Made by a program: the position numbers and the translations under genes. From assembly GCA_964291265.2 (NCBI GenBank), contig OZ219746.1, positions 271,510 to 335,509 on the forward strand: a stretch of DNA of 64,000 nt. Reading direction: 5' to 3'. The notes beneath the pieces are model-generated. The model made no database searches. It was not told where the DNA came from and saw only the letters and a list, made by a program, of their open reading frames with translations. Of the stretch, positions 2,164-60,770 are shown one piece after another; the stretch's first letter is position 1; the number at the start of each line of letters is the position of its first letter. This stretch comes from Alphaproteobacteria bacterium. GTDB taxonomy: Bacteria; Pseudomonadota; Alphaproteobacteria; SP197.

Positions 2164-2175
2164 GAGAACGCAACC

Positions 2176-3018: not shown

Positions 3019-3041
3019 AGGCCCCGGACTGCCTTGTCACC

Positions 3042-4558: not shown

Positions 4559-4612
4559 CCGGCAGCACCGGGCGCGCCATAAGCACGCGTTCCCCGATCT
4601 GGAGCCTTCCCG

Positions 4613-6254: not shown

Positions 6255-7459
<1,205 letters not shown>

Positions 7460-7490
7460 GAGAACAAGGGCACAGGCCCTGTTGGTCGAG

Positions 7491-7614: not shown

Positions 7615-7779
7615 TGGTCGAGACACTTACCGAAGGCTGGTTGATAATCAAGGTGATTGTATCGTTGACTGAAAGGCGATGTTGCGGGACTGATTGAGCG
7701 TGTGGTTCGGGGTCGCCTTCCCCGCCCCATCAGGCGGCCAATGGAAGACCGACTGCGCATGGCGGACGATACTGGACAC

Positions 7780-8480
7780 TGACAGATTGTCTATCGGCTG
7801 CTTCCCGGATCCTCGGGAGAAGGCACGCAGGCTGGCTGCTCTCGCTCATCGCCTGCCGCTTCGTCCGGAACGCCATGCTCGACCGACAAGAGCAGCAGCG
7901 AGACTGGCGGGAGCGGAACGGCTTACCCGAGCGTTTCGTTCTTCACGGCTCGACAAGGCCTTCATCCGGCTCCGCCGGTTGACGCCGTGCTTGCAGGAGA
8001 TGTCGCAGGCTCAGGCGGATGCGTGGCAGCGATGTTTCAGGGGGCTGAGGCGGCCGCCCGAAGTTCAGGCGGCGCGGGCATGATGAGCGTGTGCGCTCCC
8101 GGGCGCCATCCGCATCTTTCAAACGGCACGCTCCACGTTCAGGAAGATCGGGTCGATGACGCTGCGCCGCAGGGGAGGGAACCCTTGTCCCGAGGGAGAG
8201 CCGGTCCGCGGATCGACGGCACGTGGCATGCGATCCGTCTGCTGCAGGGTGGCTGCTGTCGAGCGCCGGCGACGACGGCACCGTGACCGGCATCGACATG
8301 AACGTGGGCCAGGTGGCCACCGGCGACGGCGAGAGCCTTCATGCGCCGGTGACGGGCCGCCTCGAAGCGCGATGCAAGCGGAGGCGGCGCAGGATGTCGC
8401 GCAAGGACAGCAGGCGGCGTGAGCGCATCCGCTGACGCCATGCCCGGAGGGTGCGGCACTCCCGACGTGATGCCCGGGTT
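7780..8480 (+). pseudogene. IS200/IS605-family TnpB (OrfB) relic, frameshifted and 3'-truncated
   Basis: TnpB-like pieces lie in three + frames: RLSIGCFPDPREKARRLAALAH...LQEMSQAQADAWQRCF; RKIGSMTLRRRGGNPCPEGEPV / DGTWHAIRLLQ; and TVTGIDMNVGQVATGDGESLHAP...RLEARCKRRRRRMSRKDSRRRERIR. The last is the RuvC-I GID block plus the basic linker. There is no zinc-ribbon or C-terminal RuvC part and no tnpA nearby. Confidence 0.5.
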
Positions 8481-8682
8481 GCCCGTTAGCAACCGGGTTT
8501 CCGTAGAATCCCGCGGTCGGCCGACGATCTTGCGCCACGGCCTTTCGCAGGCCATACCTCCGCGCATGACTGCCGACGGTGAGCGCCGTCTGCGACCTTG
8601 ACACCAAAGGACAAGATGCAAAGGTGCATCAGGACATGCGGACAGACAGCGCACGCGCTTGGGATATGGGGGCCGCTCTGGT

Positions 8683-9777
8683 ATGATGGAGTTGCTCGGG
8701 CTTTCGAAGGCTTTCGAAGACAAGGCAGCCGTTGTCGACCTGACGCTCAAGGTGGAGAACGACGAGTATCTGACATTGCTCGGACCATCGAGTTCGGGAA
8801 AAACCACGCTTTTGAGACTCATCGCGGGCCTCGAACGCCCTGATTCCGGGCGCGTCGTTCTCAATGGAGAGGACATCACGACGCGTCCCGCCCATACCCG
8901 TGGTCTGGGATTCGTTCAGCAGAACTATGCGCTGTTTCCGCACATGAATGTCGCCGACAACATTGCCTTCGGGCTGCGCAACCGCCTGATCGATCCGATC
9001 ATCGACGAGACGGCGGTCGACAGCCGGGTCTCGGCAATGCTGGATCTGGTCGGCCTCGAGGGGCTCGAAGGACGCATGGTCGGGCAGATTTCCGGAGGCC
9101 AGAAGCAGCGTGTCTCACTGGCGAGGACACTCATCACGCAACCCCAGGTGTGCCTGCTCGACGAGCCGCTCGGTGCCCTCGACGCCAATCTCCGCGAACG
9201 CATGACGGTGGAACTGCGCAACATCCGGAGCACTCTGGGCGTCACGTTTTTTCATGTTACCGGCAACGAAAACGAGGCGATCGCCATGGGCGACCGCATG
9301 GTCGTGCTTGACCAGGGCCGGGCGGTGCAGACAGCGAGGCCCGACGTTGTCTTCGACGCGCCGGCGACCGTGCGGGTCGCACGTTTTGTCAACAGCTACA
9401 ATATCCTCGATGGTGAAGTGAAGGCCGGGATCTTCCGCCATGGCGACACCGGCGTCGTGCTGCCGCACCACGCCATGACCGCGACGGCGATGGCGGTGCG
9501 CTACGACACCCCGACGATCCTGACGGAGAGCGCGGTGGATGCGGCGCACGTATCGATGCGCGCGACGTTCGTCACTGCCGAGTTCATGGGCTCGAAGATC
9601 GTCTATTTTTTCCGAACGGCGACAGGGGTCATGATGGAGGTCGAAAGCCACCTCAGCCGGGCCGACCCCGAGACCTTTTCGGCAGGCGAGGAACGCCTCC
9701 TGGCGTGGAACGTGGCGGACACGCTGTTCTTCGACGAGGCTGGCGACCTCCTCGCAGGACCCGGCAAGGGTGCATGA
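8683..9777 (+). CDS. ABC transporter ATP-binding protein (PotA/spermidine-putrescine type)
   Basis: Walker A GPSSSGKTT, signature SGGQKQR, Walker B LLDEPL, and a C-terminal TOBE-like region. Start taken at MMELLGLSKAF. Confidence 0.9.
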   Translation: MMELLGLSKAFEDKAAVVDLTLKVENDEYLTLLGPSSSGKTTLLRLIAGLERPDSGRVVLNGEDITTRPAHTRGLGFVQQNYALFPHMNVADNIAFGLRNRLIDPIIDETAVDSRVSAMLDLVGLEGLEGRMVGQISGGQKQRVSLARTLITQPQVCLLDEPLGALDANLRERMTVELRNIRSTLGVTFFHVTGNENEAIAMGDRMVVLDQGRAVQTARPDVVFDAPATVRVARFVNSYNILDGEVKAGIFRHGDTGVVLPHHAMTATAMAVRYDTPTILTESAVDAAHVSMRATFVTAEFMGSKIVYFFRTATGVMMEVESHLSRADPETFSAGEERLLAWNVADTLFFDEAGDLLAGPGKGA

Positions 9778-10637
9778 CGATGGCGTGGATTCGATCGCAG
9801 AACCGCCACCTCTTGTTGTTGGCGCCGGGTGTGTTCTGGATGGTTCTGTTCCTCGTCGTTCCACTGGCGATGATGGTTTACGTCAGCTTCTGGACGCAGA
9901 CCACCTTCACCATCGAACCGGATCTGACGGTGAAGAGCTGGGCGACGTTCTTTGCATCAGACACTTATTTCGGAGCCCTGCTGCGAACCCTGAGGATCTG
10001 GCTGACCGTCCTCGCTCTGACGCTGCTGATCGGCTACCCGACGGCGCTCTTCATCGGCCGCTTCGTGCGCAACAAGACGATGCAGACCGTTCTCCTAGTC
10101 GCCTGCGTCATCCCGTTCTGGACCTCCTTCCTGATCCGCGTGCTCGCCTGGCGTCCCATGCTCGGCAAGGAGGGCGCCATCAACATCGTCCTGCAGGCAG
10201 CGGGCATCATCGACCAGCCCACCGAAGCCCTTCTCTTCACGGAACTCTCGGTCGTCATCGGCATGGTCCAGATCTATGTCGTCTTCATGGTTGGGCCCAT
10301 CGCCTTCATGCTCGCCCGCATCGACGAGAGTCTGATCGAAGCGGCGCGCGACCTCGGCGCCTCCGCCTTCACCATCTTTCGCACCATCATCTTTCAGCTC
10401 AGCCTGCCGGGTGTGGTCGTTGGCGCCATCTTCGTCTCGGTCATGGTTCTGGGCGAGTTCGCCACCTCGGCGGCGCTTTCGGGACGCAAGGTCAATCTTC
10501 TCGGCAACATCATCGTTACCCAGGTCGGCTCCCTCAAATGGGCGTTTGCCGCGGTGGCAGGGGTCATTCTCACCGTCGTCATGGCCGTGGTGATCACGGG
10601 CCTCCTGAGGATCGTGAACCTGAGGCGCGAACTGTGA
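9774..10637 (+). CDS. ABC transporter permease (PotB-like)
   Basis: Multi-pass hydrophobic protein with an EAA-like loop (IDESLIEAARDLGAS). ATG at 9774 overlaps the ATPase stop (ATGA). Confidence 0.85.
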   Translation: MTMAWIRSQNRHLLLLAPGVFWMVLFLVVPLAMMVYVSFWTQTTFTIEPDLTVKSWATFFASDTYFGALLRTLRIWLTVLALTLLIGYPTALFIGRFVRNKTMQTVLLVACVIPFWTSFLIRVLAWRPMLGKEGAINIVLQAAGIIDQPTEALLFTELSVVIGMVQIYVVFMVGPIAFMLARIDESLIEAARDLGASAFTIFRTIIFQLSLPGVVVGAIFVSVMVLGEFATSAALSGRKVNLLGNIIVTQVGSLKWAFAAVAGVILTVVMAVVITGLLRIVNLRREL

Positions 10638-10647
10638 CGGAAGGTCG

Positions 10648-11508
10648 GTGATGCACCAATTGCGCAACATGCGGATCGGGCTTGCGGTCTATACGGTGGT
10701 GTTCGTCATCTTCCTCTACAGCCCCTTCATCGTCATGGGCATCCTGAGCTTCCAGACCGGCCCGGAGGGAGGACCCCAGTTCCCGATCATCGAATGGTCC
10801 ACGTTCTGGTACCAGCATATCCTCGGTTTCGCGCCACCCTCGAGGGTTGCACCCCTTCCCATCGGCGAGGCCCTGATCCGCTCGCTGACGCTCGCCTTCG
10901 CGACGATGGTGGTCTCGACGGTTCTCGGTACCCTTTCGGCACAGGCCTTCCGCACGCGCTTCCGCTTCTCGGGTCTCGTCTTCTATCTCGTCGTGCTCGG
11001 CATGATGGTTCCCGGTGTCCTTCTCGGTCTCGGAATGGCGCTGGTGGCTGACCAGCTCGGAGTGCAGCGCCAGTGGTGGAGTACTGCGTTTGTTCTTCAT
11101 GTGGTTTATACCTACCCCTTCGCCTTCCTTGTGATGCTCGCCATCTTCAACCGTTTCGACAGATCCATCGAGGAGGCCGCGTGGACCCTTGGCGTGTCAC
11201 CGGCGAGGACCTTCCGCAAGGTGACCTTTCCGATGATCATGCCCGGGGTACTCTCGGCGATGCTCTTCGCCCTGACGCTCTCATATGACGAGTTTCCGCG
11301 CACGCTCTTCACCGGTGGCGCTGATGTCACCATGCCGATCGCGATCTACGGCGCCTTCGCCGTCGAGATCCACCCCAACCTCTTCGCCTTCGGCGTGCTG
11401 ACGACATTGTTCTCGGTCTCGCTGCTGATCGTCTACGGCCTTCTGATGAGTGTCTCGGTCAGGAGAGCGAGAGCGCGGACAACAGGAATCCAGGAGGAGA
11501 TCCGATGA
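10648..11508 (+). CDS. ABC transporter permease (PotC-like)
   Basis: 286 aa, multi-pass, with the EAA loop FDRSIEEAAWTLGVSP. Confidence 0.85.
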   Translation: MMHQLRNMRIGLAVYTVVFVIFLYSPFIVMGILSFQTGPEGGPQFPIIEWSTFWYQHILGFAPPSRVAPLPIGEALIRSLTLAFATMVVSTVLGTLSAQAFRTRFRFSGLVFYLVVLGMMVPGVLLGLGMALVADQLGVQRQWWSTAFVLHVVYTYPFAFLVMLAIFNRFDRSIEEAAWTLGVSPARTFRKVTFPMIMPGVLSAMLFALTLSYDEFPRTLFTGGADVTMPIAIYGAFAVEIHPNLFAFGVLTTLFSVSLLIVYGLLMSVSVRRARARTTGIQEEIR

Positions 11509-12254
11509 CCGGACGACTCACCCGCCACATCGCGGTCGTCACCGGCGCCGGTTCCGGAATCGGCCGCGCGGTGGCGCTGAGGCTGGCCTCAGAAGGCGCC
11601 AGAGTGACGGTCAACGACCTCCGGGCGGAAACGGCGCACGCCACGGCCGGAATCATTCGCGGCACCGGCGGCGAGGCCGTGGCGGTGGGCGGCGACGTTT
11701 CCGACGAGACCGCCGTGAGGGCGATCTTTGCCGGGGCGCAAGAGGCGTTCGGGGCGGTCACGCTGGCGGTCAGCAATGCCGGAATCGTCCAGCAGGCACG
11801 CTTCACCGAGCTGACGGTGGACGACTGGGACCGGATGATTGCCGTTCATCTCAGAGGCGCCTTTCTCGTCAGCCGCCACGCCATCGGGGCGATGCTGGAG
11901 CGTCGCTCGGGCGTGATCGTCAACATCGCCTCGCAACTCGGACAGATCGGGGGCATCGAACTCGTTCACTACAGCGCGGCGAAAGCCGGAATCATCGGCC
12001 TGACCAAAGCCCTTGCCCGCGAAGTCGGGACTTCGGGCGTGCGTGTCAATGCCGTGGCTCCGGGGCCGATCAACACCGAACTGGTGATGGCGCTTTCCGA
12101 GGAGTGGCGCGCGGCCAAGGCGTCGGCACTGCCACTCGGGCGTTTCGGCGAACCCGAGGAGGTCGCAGCGACCGTGGCCTTCCTTGCCTCCGACGATGCG
12201 GAGCTTTATGTGGGCCAGACACTGGGCCCCAATGCAGGCGACGTGATGCTCTGA
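11505..12254 (+). CDS. SDR family oxidoreductase (FabG-like)
   Basis: TGAGSGIGRA cofactor motif, NAG, and the YSAAK catalytic motif. It overlaps the permease stop by 4 nt. Confidence 0.85.
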   Translation: MTGRLTRHIAVVTGAGSGIGRAVALRLASEGARVTVNDLRAETAHATAGIIRGTGGEAVAVGGDVSDETAVRAIFAGAQEAFGAVTLAVSNAGIVQQARFTELTVDDWDRMIAVHLRGAFLVSRHAIGAMLERRSGVIVNIASQLGQIGGIELVHYSAAKAGIIGLTKALAREVGTSGVRVNAVAPGPINTELVMALSEEWRAAKASALPLGRFGEPEEVAATVAFLASDDAELYVGQTLGPNAGDVML

Positions 12255-12439
12255 AAGCTGGCCGACGAGATGGTCCTTGTGCTCGGGGAATCTCCCACAC
12301 TTCGTCTGATTGTGCGATGAAGCACTGATCGGCGGGTTCCCAGTCTCATTCCTGTCTGGTTCCGGCGTGCGAATCGGGCGCGGGTCAGGCGAGACGCCGT
12401 ATCCGGTGGCCGGGTGGGTTGTTTCCGGGCACCGGGGAT

Positions 12440-12811
12440 TGTGTTGGCGGCGTGCGGGAGCCGCTTGGAGAGGACTCATCGAGGCCGTGATGGCTCCGCT
12501 GTGGTTCAACGGCAGTCGCCGCCTGGTTTCGGCGAAGATCACGGCAGGCGTGATGTTGTTGAGGGTGGCCCGGTTCGCCGGACCCGTTGTCCGTGCGGAG
12601 CAGGTCGACGTCCCCGCCGGAGACACAGTCCCCCTGGCGGTGGTTCAGATTTTCTGCCGCCCAATCGCCGCGATTGAGCCGGAGCATGTCCTTAGGCGAC
12701 GCGGCCCTGGCATCGAACGAGGTGACGACATGGGTGGTTTCTGTGTGGTCGTTGTGGGTTCCTGCACCGCAGGTGTCCCTCTTCACGGTCTCGCGGTCTG
12801 CTCCACTAGTC
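12440..12811 (-). pseudogene. ISAs1-family (H-repeat type) transposase relic, C-terminal fragment
   Basis: Minus-strand frames read TETTHVVTSFDARAASPKDMLRLNRGDWAAENLNHRQGD...LRTDNG, then in a shifted frame RTTGPANRATLNNITPAVIFA. This compares with the ISAs1 consensus ...ERRYYISSL...R.HWGIEN.LHW.LDV.F.ED..R.RTG.GP.N.A.LR. It is frameshifted and is interrupted at 12811 by the IS1634-family element. Confidence 0.55.
12691..12811. repeat. left copy of 121-bp direct repeat flanking the IS1634-family element
   Basis: By eye, identical base for base to 14765..14885 (CTTAGGCGACGCGGCCCTGGCATCGAACGAGG...GGTCTGCTCCACTAGTC). Confidence 0.9.
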
Positions 12812-50026: not shown

Positions 50027-50776
50027 ATGGCACGAACCGGCCGCCAGCGTGTCGATCAACTTCTGGTCCATCGGCAGCTGGCGCCGAGTCGGACACGGGC
50101 GCAGTCGCTGGTCATGGCGGGCGCAGTCTTCAGCGGCTCGAGACGGATCGACAAGCCCGGTGACCTGGTGTCTGTCAACAGCGTCATCGAGGTGCGCAGG
50201 CCGGACCATCCCTGGGTGTCGCGGGGAGGCCTCAAGCTCGAGCATGCGCTCGATCACTTCGCCATCGATGTCCAGGGTGTCCTCGCCCTCGACCTTGGAG
50301 CATCCACCGGCGGGTTCGTGGATGTCCTGCTCGCCCGACATGCGGCGCGCGTCTGGGCCGTCGATGTCGGCAAGGGACAGCTTGCCTGGCGACTGCGCCA
50401 GTCTCCCCGCGTCACCGTGTTGGAAGGCGTCAACGCTCGTGCCCTCGATGCGACACTCATCCCCGAACCGCCCGGCATCCTCGTCGCCGATCTCTCGTTC
50501 ATTTCGCTGATGACCGCGCTGCCGGCGTCCCTGTCGCTGGCGGCTCCCGCCTCTCACCTCATCGCTCTCATCAAGCCCCAGTTCGAAGCCGGCCGGGAAC
50601 GTGTCGGCAAGGGCGGCATCGTCCGCGATCCGGAGGTGCACCGGGAAGTCTGCACCAGCATCCGCACCTGGCTCGCCGACACCATGGGCTGGCACGCCCT
50701 CGGCATCGTCGAGAGTCCGATCACCGGCCGCAGCGGCAACCGCGAATTTCTCATCGCCGCCCGCAAGCCCGGTTGA
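50027..50776 (+). CDS. tlyA: TlyA family rRNA (cytidine-2'-O)-methyltransferase
   Basis: S4 domain RVDQLLVHRQLAPSRTRAQ and FtsJ-like LDLGASTGGF. Confidence 0.9.
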   Translation: MARTGRQRVDQLLVHRQLAPSRTRAQSLVMAGAVFSGSRRIDKPGDLVSVNSVIEVRRPDHPWVSRGGLKLEHALDHFAIDVQGVLALDLGASTGGFVDVLLARHAARVWAVDVGKGQLAWRLRQSPRVTVLEGVNARALDATLIPEPPGILVADLSFISLMTALPASLSLAAPASHLIALIKPQFEAGRERVGKGGIVRDPEVHREVCTSIRTWLADTMGWHALGIVESPITGRSGNREFLIAARKPG

Positions 50777-51125
50777 CCCCTCCCGGTGATCAGTTCCGCA
50801 TCGCAGTTCGGCCAGACATGCCAATGGGTGTCCGAGGGATGAGCCGCCCTCGGTGAAGGCGACACCGGCATGGGCCGCCATGCCAAGAGCGCCCGAACCG
50901 CCACCACCGATGTCGACAAGACCCTCGGAGACCCTCGGTCGCCTCCAGGCCATTGTCATTCAAGAACGTCGTGTCCTGGACGACAAAAGAAAAGCCCTGC
51001 ATACGAACGCGCGACGTCAAGAGACTCGAACGGAGTTCAGCGTGGGATCACCCTGAACAAGAGCCGAGTTCCGTTGACGGTCACGGGATCCATCCTCATA
51101 CTCGCGCAAACAGGAGTTTTCCGGG

Positions 51126-51602
51126 GTGCGGTTCAAGATCGCCATGCAAGAGCGTTTCGTGGACGACGTAGCGGCCCGAGATAAGTATTCGTCGTTCCAT
51201 CGTCATCTCCTTTCCATGCGTCCGGAACCGGAATGGCGGACAACCTTCGGCGCGCTTGAAGCGGTTCTCGGCAGCCGACTGCCTGTTTCGACACAACCGC
51301 GCCGGCCCTTGTGGTCCAACCCGAGGATGGACAATGATCATTCGCTGGCGCAGCAGGCGGCGAGATGGCGTTTGCAGAACGGGGGCATCAAAACGAGGAC
51401 GACTGTGCTCGCGTTCCAGGAGATGCCGCCGGAACCGAACACGGTGCCCGTGCGACAGCAGGGATTCTCTATCCGGGAGATTCTGCCTCCCTATGATCCC
51501 GGACCCTGGCCCGACGGCTTCACGATGAGCCGTGAGCAAATCTACGACGACATGGGGCGCTTGACCGGAGGACACGAGGACATGCCCGGTGACAACCACT
51601 GA
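51126..51602 (+). CDS. antitoxin-like partner of the downstream PIN toxin, atypical two-module protein
   Basis: 158 aa from GTG, with AGGAG 9 nt upstream. The stop lies 5 nt before the PIN gene. The N-terminal module is DKYSSFHRHLL...FGALEAVLGSRLPVS...LWSN. The C-terminal tail is PWPDGFTMSREQIYDDMGR. No RHH, AbrB or HTH motif recognised. Confidence 0.55.
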   Translation: MRFKIAMQERFVDDVAARDKYSSFHRHLLSMRPEPEWRTTFGALEAVLGSRLPVSTQPRRPLWSNPRMDNDHSLAQQAARWRLQNGGIKTRTTVLAFQEMPPEPNTVPVRQQGFSIREILPPYDPGPWPDGFTMSREQIYDDMGRLTGGHEDMPGDNH

Positions 51603-51607
51603 CCGGC

Positions 51608-52042
51608 ATGTTCGTTGACACCAATGTTCTCGTTGCGGCCCGTTTCGTGAACGCGCCTTGTCATGTGATTGCCTGCCGGTGCCTCGACCACGCCGGCAAT
51701 AGCGAAGAACCCCTGCTCATCAGCCGCCAGATTGTCCGCGAGTATCTCGTTGTGGTTACGCGCCAGCAAAGCTGGGCCAAACCGCTCGCCATAACCGACG
51801 CTTTGGATGACGTGACGAGGCTGGTATCCCCGTTCATCCTCCTGGAAGATGGTCCGAACGTCATGGAGATGCTGGCCGTGCTTTGCCGCGAGGTTCCCGT
51901 CGGGGGCAAGCAGGTCCATGACGCGAACATCGCGGCAACCATGCTGGCGTATGGTGAGCGACGACTCCTGACACTCAACATCAAGGACTTCCGGCGTTAC
52001 GGAAATCGAATCGAGCTGGTGGATCTGAAGGTGGCAGGGTGA
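51608..52042 (+). CDS. vapC: PIN domain toxin (VapC-like)
   Basis: MFVDTNVLVAA (Asp1), REYLVV (Glu), VHDANIAATM (Asp3) and LLTLNIKDFRRY (Asp4). Confidence 0.85.
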   Translation: MFVDTNVLVAARFVNAPCHVIACRCLDHAGNSEEPLLISRQIVREYLVVVTRQQSWAKPLAITDALDDVTRLVSPFILLEDGPNVMEMLAVLCREVPVGGKQVHDANIAATMLAYGERRLLTLNIKDFRRYGNRIELVDLKVAG

Positions 52043-52335
52043 GTGGGCGACCTAGTGAACCCGAACGAGTGCTCTGGCCAAGAATTAGGTCTGGAGCCGT
52101 TGCGCGTTGGAATCACCCACTGCCTCTGCGGGCATATGCATGACGGCCACGGATCCCAACCGACACAACGCCAGTCATGCGTGTGTTTCATCATCGATGG
52201 TTGATGATGCAGTGGTGGCTGGGTCGCTCGAACCGTCCTTTCGGACGGTCGATGAATATTGTTCCCAAACGCTTGACACCAACCCTCGGACCACCGACAG
52301 CTGAGAACGAGTGTCCGCCCGGAGAAAACGCCACA

Positions 52336-55300
52336 ATGACTGAACCTTCCCTGTCAGCTCTGGCCTCCGTTCTGCGACCGTTCACCACGATCGTTTTCCA
52401 GCATGTACGCCGTTTGTCCGCGGAGCGTCAGGCTGGTCAAGAGCCGTTAATCCGAACATCCACAGTCATGGATGGCTTGCTAAACAATACGCTGGACAGA
52501 ATTCGCAACGGACGCATTGACTCAAGCTGGTGGCAAAGCTTGCTGCATCGAGTCGGTCACCAGTACATTGCCCCCGATTTTCTGAAAAAGCCCGTGTTAC
52601 GGGGATGGCTTGCGGAGGAGTCCGTCGCTAAGGACCTTAAGATGATTGCGACGTGGCGTATAATGGACAGTGCTCAAGATGAGGCCGTCCCTCGCGATCG
52701 CCTCGCCCAAAGCTACTCGCACCGAACCGGAGAAGTCCCCTACCTGGCTGCCAGACCTATCGATGTGGTGGTAGCCGTCCTGGTTGCGGGCTACTTTGGA
52801 GCGAGTCGATCCGATGATCGAGCGATTACGGGCATCATGCAAACCGGATTTTTGCAGATCAGTGAACGCCTAGATCAGCTAGGCCAAGCCTTACCGCTGA
52901 CCACCGATCCAGTCACCTGCAAAGCGCATACGCAAGATGCAGAGAAGCGGCTCGCACAAATCCTCTCTCTTCGCGGCATCAATCCTGCAAGAGCGCGACA
53001 CGACACTCAAGAACTGCTAAAGCGACTTGACTCTGGTGACCTGTCCGCCGCCGCAGCAAAGATCAAGCATGACGTTCGTTACTGGACGGCAAGGTTGAGT
53101 GCGAGTGATGTCAAAACACTCGAGATTGCCAAAGAGCTCAGGGTGCAGATCAACAACGATGACCCGGACAGGGATCTGTCCATCATCGATGCACTGATAT
53201 GCGAGACGCAGGACAACCCCGATGAAGCCGTCCGACTTCTTCGCGACCGTGACGACCCTGATTCTCGAGCCGTTTTTTTCGGCCTGCTTGCCCGATCACG
53301 TGACGCCGGCGCCGCACTGGCCGAATTTGCGGAAAGAATGGTTACCGCACATGCCGAGTTCTTTACCTCTATTGGATGGAGGAACTGGGCCCATTGCATG
53401 ATCAAGGTGGGTCGATGGATGGAAGCAGCGGAGGTTCTCGTTCGGATCGGCGACAAGAAGTCCGATTCCCCGATGTTGGCTCTTATTGAAGGAATCATCA
53501 ACGCGCAGTTGCTGCTTCCCACGGAGTTGCGAAACGCTACTGGAGACCTTCCGATATCTGCCGGCATCAGACCAATGCAGGGAGAGGATGCAGAGAACAT
53601 TCATGCGCGAGCAGCGGCCTGCCTTGAAATGGCTCAGGCTGGATTTGGGGAGCTTGAAGCCAGCGCTCTCGAGCGATATGTGGCTTTCTGGCGTCAATGG
53701 CTCCGGTTGATGGATCCGAAGGATGAGAACGCAAGAGTTGCTCGGGAGCAAGTTCGACAAGATCTCGACCGTGACGAACCGGACATCAGGGCGGTACCGC
53801 TCGCATGGGCATTTGAAATTTCATTCAATCGGGAGCCGATACGACGCTACCTGTCTGGTCGAGAGAAACTCGGTGGGTTGGACGACGATGAGCTTCGGGC
53901 TCAGTGCCTTCTGTTGTTGATTGACATGGACTCCGGAGCCTTGAGTGGCCGGAACTTCCTGCGTTATCTGAATGCACATCGGAAGAGGCTTGATCGCGTG
54001 ATGTCGAACGGCCTCCTCAAGTCCGCGAATATCAGGGCTCTGGTAGTGGACAATCAGACGGCGAGAGCTCGCAAGCGTTTGGAGGAGATGCGCGGTGACC
54101 TTGACGACGAGGGAGTAAGGCGTCTTTCTGCGATGATCGATTCTCACGCGGGTCTCGACCCTCGACAGAAGCTTGAAAGGGCATACCAAGAGACTGGAAG
54201 CATCACAGATCTTCGCAATCTTGTTGAGTGTGTGAGGAATGCGGATGACAACGAGGCTCTCCTACCTCTTCTCCGGGAGTTGGTGGGGCGACACCGGACC
54301 GTCGCGAATGTGACGGACTTGGCGGTTTGCCTGAGCGGTCGACCTTTCTCGGATCACCGTCAGATAGTCGAACTTCTCGATTCCAACGAGGCCTACGCGG
54401 ATCTTGTCGAACAAAGCGTCGACCTCAAGGTTGTAAAGGCGTGGGCGCTCTTTCACTCCGGTCAGTTGTCGAAAGCCAAGGTACATAGCGACGAGATCTT
54501 GAACAATCGGTCTTCAGTGAACATGAACTTGTCTGAAGCGAGCGTGATTGGCCTCGACATCAACATCGCATTGGCATCCGGTGACTGGGAGCGTCTCCCG
54601 GCAATCGTCGAGCGTGAATGGCCAAGGCGAGATGAGCACACCGCCAATACGCTACTTGGTCTGGCCCAGATTTCACCTCGTCAAGGCAAGAACCCAGACC
54701 GGGCGCTGATGCTTGCCAGGCTGGCCGCAGAAAAGGCCCCCGATGACCCGCACGTCCTGGCAGCGTCGTATTGGTTGCATTTCCAGCATGGTCGAGACGG
54801 AGACGCTGATCGGGATTGGTTGTCACGCGCCTTGGAGCTCTCGTCGGACGAAGATGGGCCCGTGTGGTCCGTTGATCTGCAAACAGTTGCTACCAACTGG
54901 ATGCCCACGCGTCGGGAACGACTGGCCGAAATCAGGAAGCAATGGCTGGCTGGTGAGATCCCGACTGGATTGGCTGCGTCTCTATGGGACGTCTCCCTGA
55001 CACGCCTCCTTGTACAAATTCCCGAGACCAACGCAGATGAGCCCGATCGACGCCTGACGGAAGTCGTGCCGGTGGGTCTTGGCAAGCGGGCGGCCGTGGA
55101 ACTGCAAACGGACTGGGCTATTGGGCTGGATATCACCTCCATTCTCGTCTTGCACTACCTCGGTTTTTTGGAGTTTGTTTTCTGTGTGTTCAAGCGTGTC
55201 AAGCTCGCTTCTGACGTGATGCTGAGCCTGTTCCGGGAGCAGGACAGAGTCCGCTTCCATCAGCCATCGCGCATCAGAGACGGACAGCAGGTGCAGAATT

Positions 55301-58300
55301 TGTGCAACCTGCAGCGACTTCGCGTTGCTGATGGTATTGAGGCCCCACCCACAGACGCTGTCGACGAGCTAGGGAGGGAGTTGGCTGAATTATTGCACGC
55401 AGCAAGACAAGGCGGCGGCAAGGTGGTTTGCGTCTTTCCAATCCACCAACCCAAGTCGATGATGGAGAAGGAAGCCGACACCACGGCGTGGAACGACCTC
55501 CTCGTTTCAGTGTTCGATCTGTGCAGGTTGCTGCATATGCGGGGCGATATCGATGCCGACACACACGAGCGGGTTCAACTGTTTCTTCGAACCCAAGGCC
55601 AGGCAGCACGAGGGGATGCGGAAACGTCGATTCTGGACGGAGCGATCTATCTGGACGATCTCGCTCTATCCTACCTTCAGAGTGCCAAGGTTCTGGACCA
55701 GGTTGCTACGTCCAACCTGGATCTCCGCATCCATTCCAGGGTTCTCGATCGCATGGAGGCACTCGTCAGAGCGGGTCAATCGGGTGAAGACCTTGCAGTG
55801 AAGATAGACGAGATTCGTCATGTCCTACGCAGCGCAGTGGAGTCCGGAAGAGCATCCTATCTGCCTCGCAGTGTGGATCAGGAGGAGTCGGTTCCGAATC
55901 GCGACGATCCGTTCGCCGCCACCCGATCGCTGTTGGCAGCCGCTGCTGAATGTGACGCCCTCTGCGTCGATGACCGCTTCATCAACAGCAGTGAAAGCAT
56001 CACAGTCACTGAGAAAGCGGAACGCACCATCCCCATTGTCTGTGTACTTGACGTATTGGACTGCCTTGTCGAGCAAGCTCATCTCCGTCCGGTGCACCTT
56101 TGGACGGCACGGCACAAGCTGCGGTCTGGTGGATTTGTCTTCATTCCTTTGGAGGTGGACGAATTGGTCCATTGGCTGAAGACAGCCCCTGTGGAGAACG
56201 GACTGTGGATCGAGAGCGCTGAGCTTCGTGCCATTCGCCAGTCCATGGCACAGACAAGTTCTGTGGGCTTGTTCAACCCCGATGAGACTTTTGTATTGTC
56301 CGATGAGGTAACCCAAACGAGCGTTTGCGCCCTTCGGTCATTGTGGAGAAATCAGTGCTTGGCCGTGGAGACCGTCGTCACGATGTCGACTTGGGTCTGG
56401 CGACACTTGATTGCCAACGCACCTGGTGGGCACGGAGATGACGAAGAGAAAAGACGCAAGACTTGGACTCGAGAGTCAGTGCTACGGCGGGTCAGTGCGG
56501 TTCTTCTCCCACCAGGCATTGAATCGTCCGATCGCCGAGACAGCTTTGCCCGGTGGGTGGACGAGTCGGTTCTTCAACCTTTCCGGCCAGCAAATGTAAA
56601 TCTGATCGACGATGCCCTGACTCTCATAGCTGATAGCATTCCGGATGAAGATTGTGAAGACTCAGTGTTTGTTAATTTTTTTCTTTCTCACTTGCCGGAT
56701 TCTTGCCGACAGTATCTGCTGAAGAAGTATCCTGATCGAGCCCGTCGGTGGGGCTTCGAGACACGAACAGTGTTCGGTCTCGAAGCTGGGATCAAGATCC
56801 TTGATAAGGAGCTGTTTGCGGCTGCAAGGCATGTTTTGTCGGGGAAGGGGGAACGATCGATACGATCCATCATGGGCGACGATATATTGGTTGATCTCGA
56901 TCCGGGAGACTTGACCGTGGTCCTGGTGAACCCCGACACCGGGCCAGGAAACAGGGAGAAAATTCCGGATCTCTCGGTTTTTTCTCCTGATTCACAAACA
57001 CGGGTAGCGGCACTGGGTTCCATGCTTGATCGTCTTGGGCCGACGGCACCTGATTTCGGACGCCTTCTTGCCGACCTGGAATTGGGCGAGCCGGACGATT
57101 CTGAATTGACGGATGTCTTTCGTGAGGCTGCCGATGGTGTGGCAGCCTTGCAAGGTTCGTTGCTCAGGAAGATCTGTCCTGGTCAACCTCTCGACGTCGT
57201 TGACGTGGTTCCGGAAGACCTCGCTTATTACGAAAAATTCGTGGGGCCGCAGCCCGAATCGAGGGATCCCGATCAGTACATTTCCCGTACTCTGATCCCC
57301 TATCGCAGAGCACTTCTGGATCGAGACCTGAGCCGCGGCCTTGATATCTGCTGTGTTGGGGCCTTGCGCGAAGATCTTTGTCCTGGACAGTGGACGTTCC
57401 ACATCGACGACAATGAGATGTGGGATGCTCTCAACGCCTGCGATGCTGACAAGACGCCGGTTTCACTGCTGGGCGCTCTCGACGTGGCGCTGTATCGGCA
57501 GCACGACGATCGATTTCGGGACTATGCTGCACGAGCGATCATCAAGCTCTGCAGCGATGGGTTCGATCCGCAGCAGAGCACCGAATTCTACAAGCTTTTT
57601 TGGATATTTACATTTCTCACGTTCAATCGCGTAAGCCTCATCGAAAACGGTTCGAAGCAGCCTGGTTTCTGGAGACGGATGTGTGCGTGGATGCAGGCTC
57701 AGTTCATTGTCCGTGCCTTGTCAAGAGAATCTGTTTCAGTCGACTTGGACAAGCTGGAGGGTTGGGCCATGTCAAACATGGCGCTCGTGGGGGCTTATGC
57801 CGAGCTTGTCAGCGCTCGGGAAGAGCCGATGCTGTTGTTTGCGGAACGCCTGCCGCCCAGCGATTTACGTTGTGAAGTACTTGGTCGCCTTGTGGGGCTG
57901 AGGTCGCGCCACGCGAGCGAGGGAAGAAGCATTCCCCAGTCGGAAACAATCGACCAGGCACTGGAACGGGCACAGGAGAGCGGGAATTGGCTGAAGTGCT
58001 TCTTTCCCGGGCCGCTGGAAGGCCACCGACGTCCTACTGAACCTGCATCGGAGCAGCTTGTGGGGACGTTGAAGGAATCGGTGCCGGATGGCTCCCTTCC
58101 TGCATCGTGGCACTTCATGGCGAACCTTTCGCATCTGCATGCGTTGGGCGAATGCGAACTTGGTGTCGCACGTGAGGCAGTGGTTCGAGTAGGCGACGGT
58201 TCCGACGAAGGGGAAATGAGGAATACCCTCCTCTCCTTGGAAGCCGCGAGTATGGTAGCGAAAACAAGCAGGGACACGTTGCTGGCGGACGCGATCGCAG

Positions 58301-58587
58301 ATGCGGTTGCAAGCATCGCCAGGAGGGTTTCGAACGAGAACGACATCTGGCTTATTCTTGTAATCTGCTTGCAGGCTGCAGCTGCCTTCGAAGAACACGA
58401 TGCGTGGTTTGATTGGCTGGAAGAAAGACTGGCGAGAATTGCAAGCTCTCTTCCTGGTCCCCCCAACCGATCCGTTCCGATGTTCCTGGAGCATCTCGAC
58501 GCGATGGAAACGATCCTGCCCATCGGCTCCTGGTTTCATCGCCGGGCGAGATCCATAGCATCGATGGGTACTGTGCGCCGGCCGTAG
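52336..58587 (+). CDS. giant orphan protein (~2,083 aa): helical/TPR-like arrays plus a central split PIN-like signature; function unknown
   Basis: Single uninterrupted ORF (track 52177..58587). The preferred start is ATG at 52336, with GGAGAA 9 nt upstream. GC is clearly lower than in the flanks. No P-loop, signal peptide or other familiar catalytic motif was seen apart from the PIN-like residues around 55.1-56.0 kb. Confidence 0.8.
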   Translation: MTEPSLSALASVLRPFTTIVFQHVRRLSAERQAGQEPLIRTSTVMDGLLNNTLDRIRNGRIDSSWWQSLLHRVGHQYIAPDFLKKPVLRGWLAEESVAKDLKMIATWRIMDSAQDEAVPRDRLAQSYSHRTGEVPYLAARPIDVVVAVLVAGYFGASRSDDRAITGIMQTGFLQISERLDQLGQALPLTTDPVTCKAHTQDAEKRLAQILSLRGINPARARHDTQELLKRLDSGDLSAAAAKIKHDVRYWTARLSASDVKTLEIAKELRVQINNDDPDRDLSIIDALICETQDNPDEAVRLLRDRDDPDSRAVFFGLLARSRDAGAALAEFAERMVTAHAEFFTSIGWRNWAHCMIKVGRWMEAAEVLVRIGDKKSDSPMLALIEGIINAQLLLPTELRNATGDLPISAGIRPMQGEDAENIHARAAACLEMAQAGFGELEASALERYVAFWRQWLRLMDPKDENARVAREQVRQDLDRDEPDIRAVPLAWAFEISFNREPIRRYLSGREKLGGLDDDELRAQCLLLLIDMDSGALSGRNFLRYLNAHRKRLDRVMSNGLLKSANIRALVVDNQTARARKRLEEMRGDLDDEGVRRLSAMIDSHAGLDPRQKLERAYQETGSITDLRNLVECVRNADDNEALLPLLRELVGRHRTVANVTDLAVCLSGRPFSDHRQIVELLDSNEAYADLVEQSVDLKVVKAWALFHSGQLSKAKVHSDEILNNRSSVNMNLSEASVIGLDINIALASGDWERLPAIVEREWPRRDEHTANTLLGLAQISPRQGKNPDRALMLARLAAEKAPDDPHVLAASYWLHFQHGRDGDADRDWLSRALELSSDEDGPVWSVDLQTVATNWMPTRRERLAEIRKQWLAGEIPTGLAASLWDVSLTRLLVQIPETNADEPDRRLTEVVPVGLGKRAAVELQTDWAIGLDITSILVLHYLGFLEFVFCVFKRVKLASDVMLSLFREQDRVRFHQPSRIRDGQQVQNLCNLQRLRVADGIEAPPTDAVDELGRELAELLHAARQGGGKVVCVFPIHQPKSMMEKEADTTAWNDLLVSVFDLCRLLHMRGDIDADTHERVQLFLRTQGQAARGDAETSILDGAIYLDDLALSYLQSAKVLDQVATSNLDLRIHSRVLDRMEALVRAGQSGEDLAVKIDEIRHVLRSAVESGRASYLPRSVDQEESVPNRDDPFAATRSLLAAAAECDALCVDDRFINSSESITVTEKAERTIPIVCVLDVLDCLVEQAHLRPVHLWTARHKLRSGGFVFIPLEVDELVHWLKTAPVENGLWIESAELRAIRQSMAQTSSVGLFNPDETFVLSDEVTQTSVCALRSLWRNQCLAVETVVTMSTWVWRHLIANAPGGHGDDEEKRRKTWTRESVLRRVSAVLLPPGIESSDRRDSFARWVDESVLQPFRPANVNLIDDALTLIADSIPDEDCEDSVFVNFFLSHLPDSCRQYLLKKYPDRARRWGFETRTVFGLEAGIKILDKELFAAARHVLSGKGERSIRSIMGDDILVDLDPGDLTVVLVNPDTGPGNREKIPDLSVFSPDSQTRVAALGSMLDRLGPTAPDFGRLLADLELGEPDDSELTDVFREAADGVAALQGSLLRKICPGQPLDVVDVVPEDLAYYEKFVGPQPESRDPDQYISRTLIPYRRALLDRDLSRGLDICCVGALREDLCPGQWTFHIDDNEMWDALNACDADKTPVSLLGALDVALYRQHDDRFRDYAARAIIKLCSDGFDPQQSTEFYKLFWIFTFLTFNRVSLIENGSKQPGFWRRMCAWMQAQFIVRALSRESVSVDLDKLEGWAMSNMALVGAYAELVSAREEPMLLFAERLPPSDLRCEVLGRLVGLRSRHASEGRSIPQSETIDQALERAQESGNWLKCFFPGPLEGHRRPTEPASEQLVGTLKESVPDGSLPASWHFMANLSHLHALGECELGVAREAVVRVGDGSDEGEMRNTLLSLEAASMVAKTSRDTLLADAIADAVASIARRVSNENDIWLILVICLQAAAAFEEHDAWFDWLEERLARIASSLPGPPNRSVPMFLEHLDAMETILPIGSWFHRRARSIASMGTVRRP

Positions 58588-58674
58588 ATTGCCCGGCTCC
58601 CGGTGGGCATCAGCGAGAAGTCAATTGACGCCCGGATCATGCAGTGAGCCGATGTGGGGGCACCTTCCCGGAAC

Positions 58675-59889
58675 CTACACGGTGGTGATCGTCCGTGGCA
58701 GTGTCGAGAGCACCTCGAGCCCGTTGTCGGTGACAAGGAAACTCTCGATCCAGGCGGCGCCGGAGCCGCCGGGCCAGTCTTCCCAGACATCGAACTGGTT
58801 CTCCAGGTTGAACACCTGGCCTGGCTCCAGGGTGCGGTCACCGAGGTTGTGGCGGGGCCTGAGCCAGTGGTTGCCGCACCAGTCCGGAGGCACGGCGATG
58901 CCGAGGGAGTAGCCGCCGACAAACCAGACCCATTGTCTCAGTCCGGCACGGTCGGTGTAGTCGTCCGCCACCTCCTGGACCTTCGTGACCGGGTCGCCGG
59001 GACGGCATGCCTCGACGACGGCATCCATGCAGCCGGCTGACGTCGTCATGAGCTGCGTCCAGCGTCGATCGGGTTCCCCCAGGGAGAACGTGCGGTTGAG
59101 GTTGACGTGGTAGCGGTGGAGGCAGCCGCAGAAATCGAGAAACACCAGGTCTCCATAGCGGATGCGGCGGTGCTGCGCGGGACTGTGGTGGGTGCCGGCG
59201 CGCGGGCCCGAGGCCACCATGGTGCGGATTCCGGGGTAACCGCCGCCCGCCTTCATCATGGTCGACGCGATGACGGCCTCGATCTCGGTCTCCATCACCC
59301 CCTCGGCAATGGCGTCACGGGCTGCGGCCATGGCCTCGTCGGCCATGGCGGCCGCCCGCTTCATCACGGCGACCTCCGCCGGCGACTTCACGAAGCGCAG
59401 TTCCTCGACGAGGAACGAGGCGTCCTCCACCACCGCTCCGCCGGCTTCGAGAGCACCTTCGAGGGCGTGACTCGTCCGGCCGTGGGGGGCGTAGGCCCAG
59501 GGCTGAATGCCGACCCGTGCCGAGACGAGTCCGAATTCGGCCAGGGCGCCGGCGATCTGGCGGCATTCGCTCTCCGTGGACCCGTGATCAAGCCAGCACA
59601 CGTCACGGATTTCCGGCGTCGTGGAAACGATCGTCGTGTGGCCGCGGCCGTCAAAGAACAGTGTGTCGTCGCTTCCGGCGCGCACCATGAGTCCCGTCAG
59701 GCTCTCGAGGTGGTACCAGATCATGTCATAGCCGGTGAGCCACGTGAGATCGGCCGGGTTGGTGACGAAGAGGGCATCGAGACCGGCCTCGGTCATCGCC
59801 TGCCTCGTGCGCTGCCGACGCCGAGCGTACTCCTCGCCGGTGAAGGGCTGCTCCCAGTCGATCTGGTCGCGCAGGTAGGTCTGGATCAT
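58675..59889 (-). CDS. M24 family metallopeptidase (creatinase/ectoine-hydrolase-like)
   Basis: In-frame ATG at 59889 (MIQTYLRDQIDWEQPFTGEEY). LDALFVTNPADLTWLTGYD and VKSPAEVAVMKRAA. It is a paralogue of the ORF at 1009..2163. Confidence 0.8.
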   Translation of the reverse strand: MIQTYLRDQIDWEQPFTGEEYARRRQRTRQAMTEAGLDALFVTNPADLTWLTGYDMIWYHLESLTGLMVRAGSDDTLFFDGRGHTTIVSTTPEIRDVCWLDHGSTESECRQIAGALAEFGLVSARVGIQPWAYAPHGRTSHALEGALEAGGAVVEDASFLVEELRFVKSPAEVAVMKRAAAMADEAMAAARDAIAEGVMETEIEAVIASTMMKAGGGYPGIRTMVASGPRAGTHHSPAQHRRIRYGDLVFLDFCGCLHRYHVNLNRTFSLGEPDRRWTQLMTTSAGCMDAVVEACRPGDPVTKVQEVADDYTDRAGLRQWVWFVGGYSLGIAVPPDWCGNHWLRPRHNLGDRTLEPGQVFNLENQFDVWEDWPGGSGAAWIESFLVTDNGLEVLSTLPRTITTV

Positions 59890-59933
59890 GGTGTTCTTCC
59901 CGGTGCTGCCGGCAATGGTCGGCGGTGGAGGGG

Positions 59934-60770
59934 TCAGTCGGAGCGCCAGCCCCACATGGCGCCGCCCTTCATGGCTCTCAAGGGCACGCGGCCGTGGTCG
60001 CTCGGATAATGCCCGAGCAAGCCGTCGTGCACATTGTAGCCCATGAGTTGCTGAAGGTGCTCCGGCAAGGCGGCGGCGGTTTCGCGGGGAACGGAAAGGA
60101 AGTGATTGACCTCCTGGCGCAGCCAGCCGAGGCAGTAGGTGTTGATGAGTCCGGCACGGGGTCGGCGGTCCCGGTTGGCTCCGCCACCGTGCCATGCTGA
60201 TCCGAGATAGAAGAGCGCCGATCCCTTCGGCATGTCGGCCGACACCACCCCATCATCAGGCCCGGGCGATCGCGACGGCGGCCAGCGATGGCTCTTCGGA
60301 ACGAGCCGGGTGGCCCCGTTGACGTCGGTGAACGCCTCAAGGGCCCACATGACCGAGACCTGCCACTCGACGCCGGGGACCTGCACGGGGTAGATCGTGT
60401 CGTCGCGGTGGAGAACCTGCCCGGTTTCGCCTGGATGGATCTCGATGGCCGTGCAACTGCCGATGAGATAGGAGGTGCAGTGGTCAAGGAGAATGGCGTC
60501 GAGCACACGCATCATGCCGCGGTGACCGATCATGCCGGCGGATGCCGGCGAGATGTCGAGAACCGAATTGACGCGCAGGGTGGTGTAGCCGTTGAAATCG
60601 CTCACGGTGGACCGGCCCACCCGGTCAAAGGGCTCCCTGAGGTCGCTTCGCACCTCGTCGGCCATGGCATCGTCGACATAGTGCTCGACGATGGCCGCAC
60701 CATCGCGCCGGATCGCTCCAACGATGTCGGGAACCGGTGCATCGCTCCTGAACCGTTCGATCCCCGGCAT
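59934..60770 (-). CDS. phytanoyl-CoA dioxygenase (PhyH) family oxygenase
   Basis: 278 aa. LHRDD...H(x)GGAN pattern of Fe(II)/2OG PhyH enzymes. Confidence 0.7.
   Translation of the reverse strand: MPGIERFRSDAPVPDIVGAIRRDGAAIVEHYVDDAMADEVRSDLREPFDRVGRSTVSDFNGYTTLRVNSVLDISPASAGMIGHRGMMRVLDAILLDHCTSYLIGSCTAIEIHPGETGQVLHRDDTIYPVQVPGVEWQVSVMWALEAFTDVNGATRLVPKSHRWPPSRSPGPDDGVVSADMPKGSALFYLGSAWHGGGANRDRRPRAGLINTYCLGWLRQEVNHFLSVPRETAAALPEHLQQLMGYNVHDGLLGHYPSDHGRVPLRAMKGGAMWGWRSD

Follow-up and report, generated by a model that had tools for sequence, protein, structure and literature searches.

A replacement at the tlyA-M24 hotspot of an alphaproteobacterium carries a mobile cassette with a toxin-antitoxin-like pair and a giant predicted defence nuclease

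Introduction

Among the described systems that come closest to the locus reported here are the TPR-GreA/B-C-PIN conflict system predicted by Kaur, Iyer, Burroughs and Aravind in 2021, for which cleavage of invader transcripts was predicted (PMC8195603), and DS-3, a validated single-protein PIN defence system (DefensePredictor) in which the catalytic residues are essential and there is no cognate antitoxin (PMC13092281). The locus lies in a 64,000-nucleotide (nt) stretch of an Alphaproteobacteria bacterium (GCA_964291265.2, contig OZ219746.1, positions 271,510 to 335,509 of the forward strand), hereafter the window, where about 7.9 kb of unusual composition separates tlyA from a gene for an M24 peptidase and encodes, among other things, a small VapC-type PIN protein and a protein of 2,083 residues (the giant). 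Taken together, our data make it probable that this block is an acquired replacement at a variable hotspot, composed of insertion sequence (IS) debris and a 7.5-kb cassette that carries a toxin-antitoxin (TA)-like pair and, in the giant, a predicted defence nuclease. As a genomic island the block is ordinary; its value lies in the delimited cassette, in the giant family and in the DUF7662-type partner of a VapC protein.

The giant shares with the TPR-GreA/B-C-PIN proteins (PMC8195603) the form of a large, mostly standalone protein and the TPR repeats, with which it may combine a PIN domain of the same subtype (PF20698, for which the giant's score is below threshold). It differs from them in having neither a GreA/B-C domain nor a variable N-terminal effector, in its domain order (TPR-HTH-PIN-PIN-solenoid), in the tandem arrangement of its PINs and in a C-terminal module of ~640 residues. 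There was no PF01272 match to GreA/B-C in the giant even on excised pieces, and hhalign with a GreA-C profile built from 21 genomes gave a probability <1%. Because GreA/B-C is undetectable and the domain order and number differ, we keep the giant apart from that system and have not adopted its classification as a member. With the Avs/STAND (NLR-like) proteins the giant has in common its very large size, the union in one polypeptide of solenoid repeats as a "sensor" with a nuclease effector, and an occurrence in defence islands; unlike them, it has no NTPase and carries repeats both before and after the effector. DS-3 employs a PIN ribonuclease in defence with no antitoxin, a likeness to the predicted giant nuclease at the level of description, and with this precedent for an auto-inhibited effector (PMC13092281) an antitoxin-less PIN effector is plausible. 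The proteins of Pfam family PF24407 (HTH_upst_double_PIN) offer a further parallel: the helix-turn-helix (HTH) of the giant scores above the gathering threshold of that family and is followed by tandem alpha/beta domains with PIN-type residues.

The small gene pair resembles VapBC type II TA modules in its 144-residue PIN toxin with D4, E45, D105 and D126, in the small gene that ends 5 nt upstream of it, and in that the window's type of pair is also found alone in a TA-rich region. It departs from them in that its candidate antitoxin is DUF7662-like and not of the RHH, AbrB, Phd or HTH type, and in that the match to TIGR00028 stays below cut-off. The block as a whole has the sharp compositional break of genomic or defence islands at core-gene hotspots, together with cargo that differs between related species, a mixture of TA, defence-like and IS cargo and a site between convergent 3' ends; it differs from such islands in lacking an integrase, a tRNA and att repeats, in the loss of a deacetylase gene, and in that the recurring unit is only the 7.5-kb cassette.

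Results

Foreign DNA has replaced a resident gene between tlyA and M24

The following features delimit the block.

50027..50776, + strand: tlyA, left core flank, a TlyA-family rRNA 2'-O-methyltransferase gene (TIGR00478, E 5e-64, above cut-off; FtsJ and S4 domains)
58588..58648, no strand: 61 bp of untraced source between the cassette end and renewed core homology, absent from other cassette copies
58675..59880, - strand: M24 (creatinase/prolidase-type) peptidase gene, right core flank (Peptidase_M24, E 1e-35; Creatinase_N)

The GC content of 50790-58674 is 0.569 versus 0.643 for the remainder of the window. Along a 500-nt profile, GC runs at 0.64-0.68 up to 50.5 kb, at 0.59-0.62 over 50.75-52 kb and at 0.51-0.59 over 52-58.5 kb, and is back at 0.65-0.69 from 58.5 kb. 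In the distribution of 7,885-nt windows across the 4.83-Mb genome (mean 0.647, standard deviation 0.020), the block has z = -3.9, with 0.36% of windows lower, and is one of about eight low-GC segments. At finer resolution, 60-nt lines within 52.3-58.5 kb span 0.37-0.70 (mean 0.56) and those in the flanks 0.55-0.78 (mean 0.651; block versus flanks, Mann-Whitney p = 2e-30); the A/T-rich run TTAATTTTTTTCTTTC is located at 56672-56687. The GC content of third codon positions (GC3) is 0.60 in the giant gene (0.52-0.66 over 200-codon windows), 0.72 in both the PIN gene and the small gene upstream of it (orf158), 0.80 in tlyA and 0.80-0.86 in the M24 gene. The compositional break is real and sharp: the original prediction of a distinct block of ~7.9 kb is borne out by the GC drop, the z value and the GC3 of 0.60 versus ~0.80, and the sliding profiles of GC and GC3 leave no room for an absent drop.

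Homology at the DNA level with related genomes ends at 50777-50786, just past the tlyA stop codon, and restarts at 58645-58668, immediately downstream of the M24 stop codon (at ~58645-58649 for the relatives G004 and G011); the edges first proposed for the block lie ~3-25 nt from these breakpoints. The foreign DNA occupies 50787-58648 and is flanked by the 3' ends of tlyA and M24, which converge on it. The M24 orthologues of same-genus genomes are 88-91% identical, and in five same-genus species tlyA and M24 are neighbours, separated by 0.94 kb (G013), 2.3 kb (G015), 3.9 kb (G005), 5.9 kb (G012) and 11.2 kb (G004); in G011, no tlyA was found within 12.6 kb of M24. None of the gap DNA of the relatives matched the island. 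The smallest gap, that of G013, consists of a single gene for a 272-residue Polysacc_deac_1 protein, which is kept in 5/5 species, and the cargo beyond this deacetylase gene amounts to 0 to ~10 kb and differs by species (a HigB toxin with an HTH-IrrE protein; a YhgA/Rpn-like protein; DUF3644; a DDE_Tnp_1_4 IS; unknowns). A search of the window's own genome for that deacetylase returned no orthologue, the best paralogue being 41% identical and located elsewhere. Because the five relatives keep the deacetylase gene with differing cargo and the own genome has no orthologue of it, the tlyA-M24 site is a variable hotspot at which the resident deacetylase gene has been replaced. The original prediction of foreign, non-housekeeping DNA between tlyA and M24 stands in that the 7.9 kb is absent from the site in relatives, with the junctions given above; what does not stand is its description as a simple insertion, since a replacement with loss of the deacetylase gene took place.

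The giant itself is absent from 40/40 relatives (22 of them same-genus species) and from 400 further genomes of the class (307 genera); in the class, 1/401 genomes carries it. The whole window contains no tRNA or tmRNA, the interval 50500-59000 has no Rfam match at permissive E-values, flanking direct or inverted repeats do not exceed chance-level 12-24-mers, and the right junction, examined for a terminator-like fold, is unstructured (z +0.7).

Two side observations concern the site. In the closest relative, the hotspot (locus L014, G004:C2:1546000-1562000) holds its own cargo of 11.2 kb at positions 1551-12772 with 57.9% GC, made up of the deacetylase gene, DUF3644, a DDE_Tnp_1_4 IS, a gene for a 506-residue lipoprotein-like protein and unknowns, none of them common to the window. 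The M24/creatinase-type peptidase (58675-60195) belongs to an unusually large paralogous family: the own genome yields 16 or more matches, and same-genus relatives yield between 8 and 30.

A 7.5-kb cassette recurs as a unit in distantly related hosts

Most of the block is made up of one conserved unit, with the following parts.

51061..58587, + strand: conserved mobile cassette of 7.5 kb, from the promoter to the stop codon of the giant gene (continuous DNA homology with other hosts)
51074..51102, + strand: cassette promoter TTGACG-17-CATACT, predicted, sigma-70-like, with the -35 hexamer inside the palindrome TTGACGGTCAA
51126..51602, + strand: orf158, antitoxin candidate with a DUF7662-like N-terminal domain and a conserved C-terminal tail SREQIYDDMGRLTGG (125 homologues, many with PF24698)
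51608..52042, + strand: VapC-type PIN toxin gene, 144 residues (PF01850, 27.1 bits, above the 23.6 gathering score)
52043..52335, + strand: spacer of 293 nt from the PIN gene to the giant gene, not conserved (aligns well among the closest copies only; missing from locus L027)
52336..58587, + strand: giant gene, 2,083 residues from the ATG at 52336 (frame open from 52177; homologues align from residue 49-54)

The window DNA aligns continuously with two other loci, L028 (79% identity) and L026 (75%), from 51070-51072 to 58587, and with a decayed copy in L061 at 87% from 51061; on the right, the homology stops exactly at the stop codon of the giant gene. A gene of ~155 codons and a 144-codon PIN gene precede the giant in L026, L027, L028, L029, L030, L090 and L091, amid unrelated flanking genes, and this linkage of three genes holds for every locus in which the giant is at least 55% identical to that of the window (8 intact loci, including the window). 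The original prediction had listed a PIN module and, separately, a giant gene; in eight hosts the two travel as one promoter-to-stop unit. Within 50700-52400, no sigma-70-like site other than the promoter at 51074-51102 is present (0.3 expected by chance), and the sequence of this promoter is kept in six other cassette copies. A conserved RNA or operator sought by alignment in the 293-nt spacer between the PIN and giant genes found only poor conservation. The decayed copy (L061:10001-10617) retains an intact orf155 (82% identity) and the first 48 codons of the PIN gene, followed by IS transposase genes.

Across hosts, the cassette proteins are 66-82% identical to those of the window, whereas the neighbouring housekeeping genes (PBP1A, PriA, oxidases, ABC transporters) are ~44-54% identical to the own orthologues in 4/5 loci; the exception is a highly conserved flank gene in L061, at 72%. 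Because the cassette proteins are so much more alike than most core flank genes, the comparison provides direct evidence, at the sequence level, that the cassette has been transferred between distant lineages. No single mobility gene travels with it: integrases and IS66 are found in one host, other ISs in another and none in several. With limits set by eight independent insertions, the cassette is a cleanly delimited mobile unit.

The cassette has a GC content of 0.565-0.597 in hosts whose flanks are at 0.655-0.702. That it stays at ~57% in all hosts despite 21-25% DNA divergence could also reflect an intrinsic constraint, and one might then ask whether the block was inherited vertically and owes its low GC to the amino-acid or functional constraint of the giant. 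This is extremely improbable and effectively refuted, given the absence of the block from the 40 relatives and the 400 class genomes, the different ancestral gene at the site, the difference in GC3, which is free of protein constraint, and the much greater likeness between hosts of the cassette proteins than of core genes.

The small gene pair is VapBC-like with a DUF7662-type partner

The 144-residue protein matches TIGR00028 with E 1e-13 and 51.5 bits, below the cut-off of 73.6, and its residues D4, E45, D105 and D126 are invariant in 8 homologues. The orf158 stop codon lies 5 nt ahead of the PIN start, and the conserved promoter is common to both genes. The orf158 product itself has no direct family match in Pfam or NCBIfam, including none to an RHH, AbrB, Phd or HTH fold; its homologues form 125 clusters that frequently carry PF24698 (DUF7662), and the homologue in L029 matches DUF7662 at E 0.007. 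In the homologue alignment, orf158 is composed of a variable linker and the strongly conserved C-terminal tail SREQIYDDMGRLTGG, which may be the part that binds the toxin. The ATG with which all orf158 homologues start reads AAG in the window (51126-51137); orf158 probably starts three codons further upstream, at the in-frame GTG at 51126, which is preceded at a distance of 8 nt by AGGAG.

The DUF7662-PIN pair is also found on its own, at L087:2239-3152 and L088:8001-9010, in one case among BrnT and ParDE modules (a TA-rich region) and in the other beside ATP-synthase and oxidoreductase genes. The pair is most likely a VapBC-like type II TA module, predicted to act as an addiction or stabilising module for the cassette, and it exposes a non-canonical partner of VapC of the DUF7662 type.

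The giant represents a large family with an HTH and tandem PIN-like domains between two solenoids

Residue numbers for the giant refer to the 2,136-residue open reading frame (frame from 52177; the ATG is residue 54). Its regions are as follows.

52336..54876, + strand: residues 54-~900, all-alpha TPR solenoid (AlphaFold2 pLDDT 81.5; weak TPR_14 and TPR_19 matches)
54895..55089, + strand: residues 907-971, HTH_upst_double_PIN (PF24407, E 1.1e-8, 35.7 bits, above the gathering score of 27)
55099..56196, + strand: residues ~975-1340, tandem PIN-like alpha/beta domains (PF20698-like; two alpha/beta domains in the AlphaFold2 secondary structure)
56674..58584, + strand: residues ~1500-2136, small beta domain and HEAT/ARM-like solenoid (AlphaFold2 model; a separate gene of ~635 codons in split forms)

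Far from being the orphan that the original prediction took it for, the giant has at least 367 full-length homologues of about 2,024-2,077 residues and 43-72% identity, and a profile search of 1.84 billion representatives (clusters at 50% identity) returned 2,770 clusters at E <= 1e-3 and 1,165 at E <= 1e-30; together with the PF24407 match, these counts dispose of the orphan label, whereas the PIN assignment and the non-housekeeping character claimed for the content are upheld. The contigs that bear the giant come from Gammaproteobacteria, Acidobacteriota, Binatia, Spirochaetia, Thermodesulfobacteriota, Nitrospira, Paracoccaceae and others, and nearly all are metagenome-assembled genomes; in public records, the proteins are named hypothetical. 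The giant profile found nothing among PDB sequences, and NCBIfam had no match on the giant.

Both halves of the giant were modelled with AlphaFold2 from 19-sequence alignments (mean pLDDT 81.5). The Foldseek neighbours of the N-terminal half are the TPR scaffolds Ctr9, Ski3, TTC7 and APC, with E 1e-7 to 1e-4, and the family has a conserved, helical N-terminus throughout, with no variable N-terminal effector or effector-associated (EAD) domain. In the model of the C-terminal half, two alpha/beta domains are followed by a stretch of helices, then by a small beta domain (~1532-1595) and lastly by a HEAT/ARM-like solenoid that reaches the C-terminus. On the whole giant, PF20698 matches residues 1158-1271 just below threshold; on excised pieces, it matches PIN-A (~975-1148) with E 0.066 and PIN-B (~1149-1358) with E 1.7e-5 and 25.5 bits versus a cut-off of 27.8. 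Many homologues of the giant carry a precomputed PF20698 match. Residues D985, H1028, D1160, D1265, D1266, N1270 and D1292 are invariant down to relatives of ~25% identity; H1028 lies within the invariant motif RFHQPS, E1021 is nearly invariant and D1114 is not conserved. The residue pattern agrees with the presence of one complete PIN active site or more in the giant. The giant has no Walker A motif and no NTPase, STAND or AAA match in Pfam.

In some lineages, the protein is split into genes of ~1,440 and ~635 codons, with the break at residue ~1490-1500, and because the C-terminal module is a separate gene in these forms we regard it as a separable subunit. In the split loci L049, L050 and L089 (the last being the Methylophaga thalassica plasmid NZ_CP143310), a gene for a TPR-HTH-PINs protein of ~1,370-1,450 residues precedes one for a C-terminal module of ~625-640 residues; stop and start codons overlap, and RefSeq calls both products hypothetical proteins.

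A second clade of giants (nine loci, 37-46% identity) keeps a convergent pair of genes for ~200-residue and ~154-residue proteins. In these loci (L034, L035, L037, L039, L041, L042, L043, L045 and L047), the pair lies ~100-1,300 nt downstream of the giant on the opposite strand, and the proteins, which have the invariant motifs LSVNWLE and DPSH, gave no Pfam, NCBIfam or PDB match. The pair may be another TA-like partner.

A predicted role in defence

The genes that adjoin relatives of the giant include a Type ISP restriction enzyme with integrases; HEPN/MNT, restriction-modification (RM) of the XamI and Eco57I kinds, and RadC; a TIR-STAND protein; BrxF with BrxC; a PstI-type RM pair; and the specificity (S) subunit of a Type I system. 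In all, six of about 13 examined relatives directly adjoin RM, BREX, TIR-STAND or HEPN/MNT genes. We consider a phage-defence or abortive-infection nuclease the most likely role of the giant, as judged from these neighbourhoods and the predicted nuclease domains.

Several observations weigh against this interpretation of the locus. The copies in L028, L090, L091 and the window are surrounded by metabolic genes and have no further defence gene in their vicinity; none of the three cassette proteins is matched by a PADLOC v2 model; viral contigs contain no relative of the giant; and a literature search on PF24407, PF24698, PF20698 and DUF7662 returned no paper. As regards structure, AlphaFold2 confidence is low around D1265/D1266, and with the whole C-terminal model Foldseek finds weak, generic karyopherin-like solenoids only, so that the PIN assignment is based on profile matches below the gathering score and on the residue pattern. 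As regards acquisition, neither an integrase, a tRNA, an att-like repeat nor an intact transposase bounds the island. It should be noted that members of the giant family come almost entirely from uncultured bacteria, which is probably why defence screens have missed it. A plasmid collection contained a few distant relatives (22-30% identity) on large plasmids, labelled hypothetical proteins.

A non-immune role, in which the giant would act as a scaffold for RNA processing or regulation, selfish or of housekeeping type, and would spread through the addictive TA pair linked to it, would account for the copies that lie among metabolic genes with no defence neighbours, for the lack of a PADLOC match and for the TPR and HEAT solenoids, which are generic scaffolds. 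We think it unlikely: about half of the examined relatives adjoin defence genes as listed above, the distribution within the class (1/401 genomes) is extremely patchy and the foreign composition persists in every host.

It is similarly doubtful that the three genes form one obligate system, for example with the VapC PIN protein as an effector that the giant, as sensor, restrains or frees, and with the DUF7662 protein as regulator. Gene order, the single upstream promoter and the tight spacing are shared by 8/8 intact loci with a giant at least 55% identical, the PIN stop codon overlaps the giant start in L027 and L090, and the second clade of giants is tied to a different conserved pair of small genes, all of which speaks for such a trio; against it, the DUF7662-PIN pair occurs with no giant in L087 and L088, the giant occurs with no pair in L032, L033, L036, L038, L040, L044, L048 and L092, and the giant has conserved PIN catalytic residues of its own.

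We favor an acquired cassette with two separable modules. The segment 50787-58648 came horizontally into the tlyA-M24 hotspot, replacing the polysaccharide-deacetylase gene; its left ~270 bp are the debris of three insertion sequences, and the 7.5-kb cassette, with its own predicted sigma-70-type promoter, moves as a unit among distantly related high-GC bacteria while keeping ~57% GC. These points, together with the domain layout of the giant and its conserved catalytic residues, are shown by the data above, whereas the defence role, the way of activation and the route of entry are inferred. One module, the DUF7662-type antitoxin candidate with the VapC PIN RNase, most likely stabilises the cassette. 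The other, the 2,083-residue giant, is composed of a TPR solenoid, an HTH, a tandem PIN and a beta domain with a HEAT-like solenoid, has no NTPase, and would be a self-contained sensor-effector nuclease; its repeat arrays may serve to bind a trigger or to mask the PIN site, and release would then free that site to cut RNA.

What can be said of the family at large is that it is extensive (2,770 clusters), with proteins of ~2,070 residues that combine TPR, HTH and tandem-PIN regions, invariant nuclease residues and frequent RM, BREX or TIR neighbours. More tentatively, and with less confidence than in the account of the locus itself, we suggest that the giants constitute an unrecognised family of NTPase-free, single-polypeptide immune nucleases, in which the TPR array of ~850 residues and the HEAT-like module of ~640 residues (its own subunit in split forms) might sense a phage cue and gate the tandem-PIN site, in which the small two-gene partners would vary by clade (DUF7662-VapC in one, the 200-residue and 154-residue proteins in another), and whose promoter-to-stop cassette would resist compositional amelioration. 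If the giant is a defence nuclease, it adds an NTPase-free sensor-effector architecture to the known bacterial immune proteins.

IS relics at the left edge and possible routes of entry

Blastn against the own genome finds multi-copy matches of the island at its left edge only, in the following features.

50787..51060, no strand: left-edge IS debris of the island, non-coding (~270 bp)
50832..50986, - strand: IS4/Tn5-like transposase gene fragment (QDTTFLNDNGLEAT region), 84.5% identical to positions 1040-1184 of a 2,376-bp IS
50975..51000, + strand: terminal 26 nt of a ~1-kb interspersed repeat (25/26 nt equal to the exact end of the repeat at C2:3680029-3681032)
51000..51057, + strand: ISAs1-like IS terminus that abuts the cassette (~80% identity over 48 aligned nt, 51000-51047, to a 2,345-bp IS)

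The first 45 bp (50787-50831) have no match in the own genome by blastn. The transposase fragment at 50832-50986 still reads VQDTTFLNDNGLEATEGL on the minus strand; the 2,376-bp IS from which it is recognised has at least 5 full copies on contig C2 of the own genome and encodes a 772-residue transposase with Tnp_DNA_bind and Dimer_Tnp_Tn5 domains. The ~1-kb repeat is present in at least 8 copies, and the 2,345-bp ISAs1-like IS in roughly 17 full or partial copies; the extension of the ISAs1-like terminus from 51047 to ~51057 was judged by eye. The left-edge IS sequences are relics, with no working mobility gene, and blastn against the own genome finds nothing comparable at the right end of the island. 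The original prediction that integrase, transposase, tRNA and direct repeats are all missing is thus correct for the integrase, the tRNA and the repeats and has to be amended for the transposase, given the Tn5-like fragment and two IS termini at the left. With no integrase, tRNA or direct repeats, the caution of the original prediction about the acquisition mechanism holds good.

Two routes, IS-associated entry and recombination in the flanks, fit the data about equally well, and each is for now a tentative proposal. In an IS-mediated capture or transposition, the cassette would have arrived beside the ISAs1-like element, and later IS insertions and deletions would have removed the deacetylase gene and collapsed the ISs. 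The ISAs1-like terminus does end ~3 bp from the first conserved base of the cassette, the remnants of three ISs follow one another at the left edge, overlapping by 12 nt at one of the junctions, the own genome is rich in ISs, and IS elements flank relatives of the cassette in L026, L061 and L092. Such a route has to contend with the right end, which has no IS remnant, with the lack of a target-site duplication and of an intact transposase, with the resemblance of the IS fragments to resident families, so that they could postdate the arrival, and with the ISs that flank the L092 copy, which are only 70% alike. For the last reason, L092 was rejected as a composite transposon.

In an allelic replacement, to which we give the same tentative weight, recombination in the tlyA and M24 flanks would have brought in DNA of a related donor with the cassette already at the hotspot. 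This would suit a cargo that changes from one same-genus species to the next between these two core genes, the behaviour to be expected of a recombination hotspot, and the position of the breakpoints, within 10-30 nt of both stop codons; it is at odds with the finding of the cassette at this site in 0/40 relatives and with the presence of the IS debris.

Some features of the resident elements may be added. In the 2,376-bp IS at C2:434277-436652, of which at least 5 further full copies exist, an N-terminal DruA-like domain of the transposase (PF14236, E 2e-21) precedes the Tnp_DNA_bind and Tn5 dimerisation domains, and the ISAs1-like IS at C2:2243849-2246193 encodes a 628-residue transposase with an internal tandem octapeptide repeat of the KEGSGDAG type. 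The own genome also has IS families of ~1.8 kb and ~2.39 kb, with at least 10 copies each, and a repeat of ~1 kb that contains no long open reading frame. Further low-GC segments (0.51-0.59) of similar size lie at C1:29.5-42.9 kb, C2:114.5-130.9 kb, C2:916-932 kb, C2:942-952 kb, C2:2118-2130 kb and C2:3366-3385 kb of the own genome and are probably more acquired islands.

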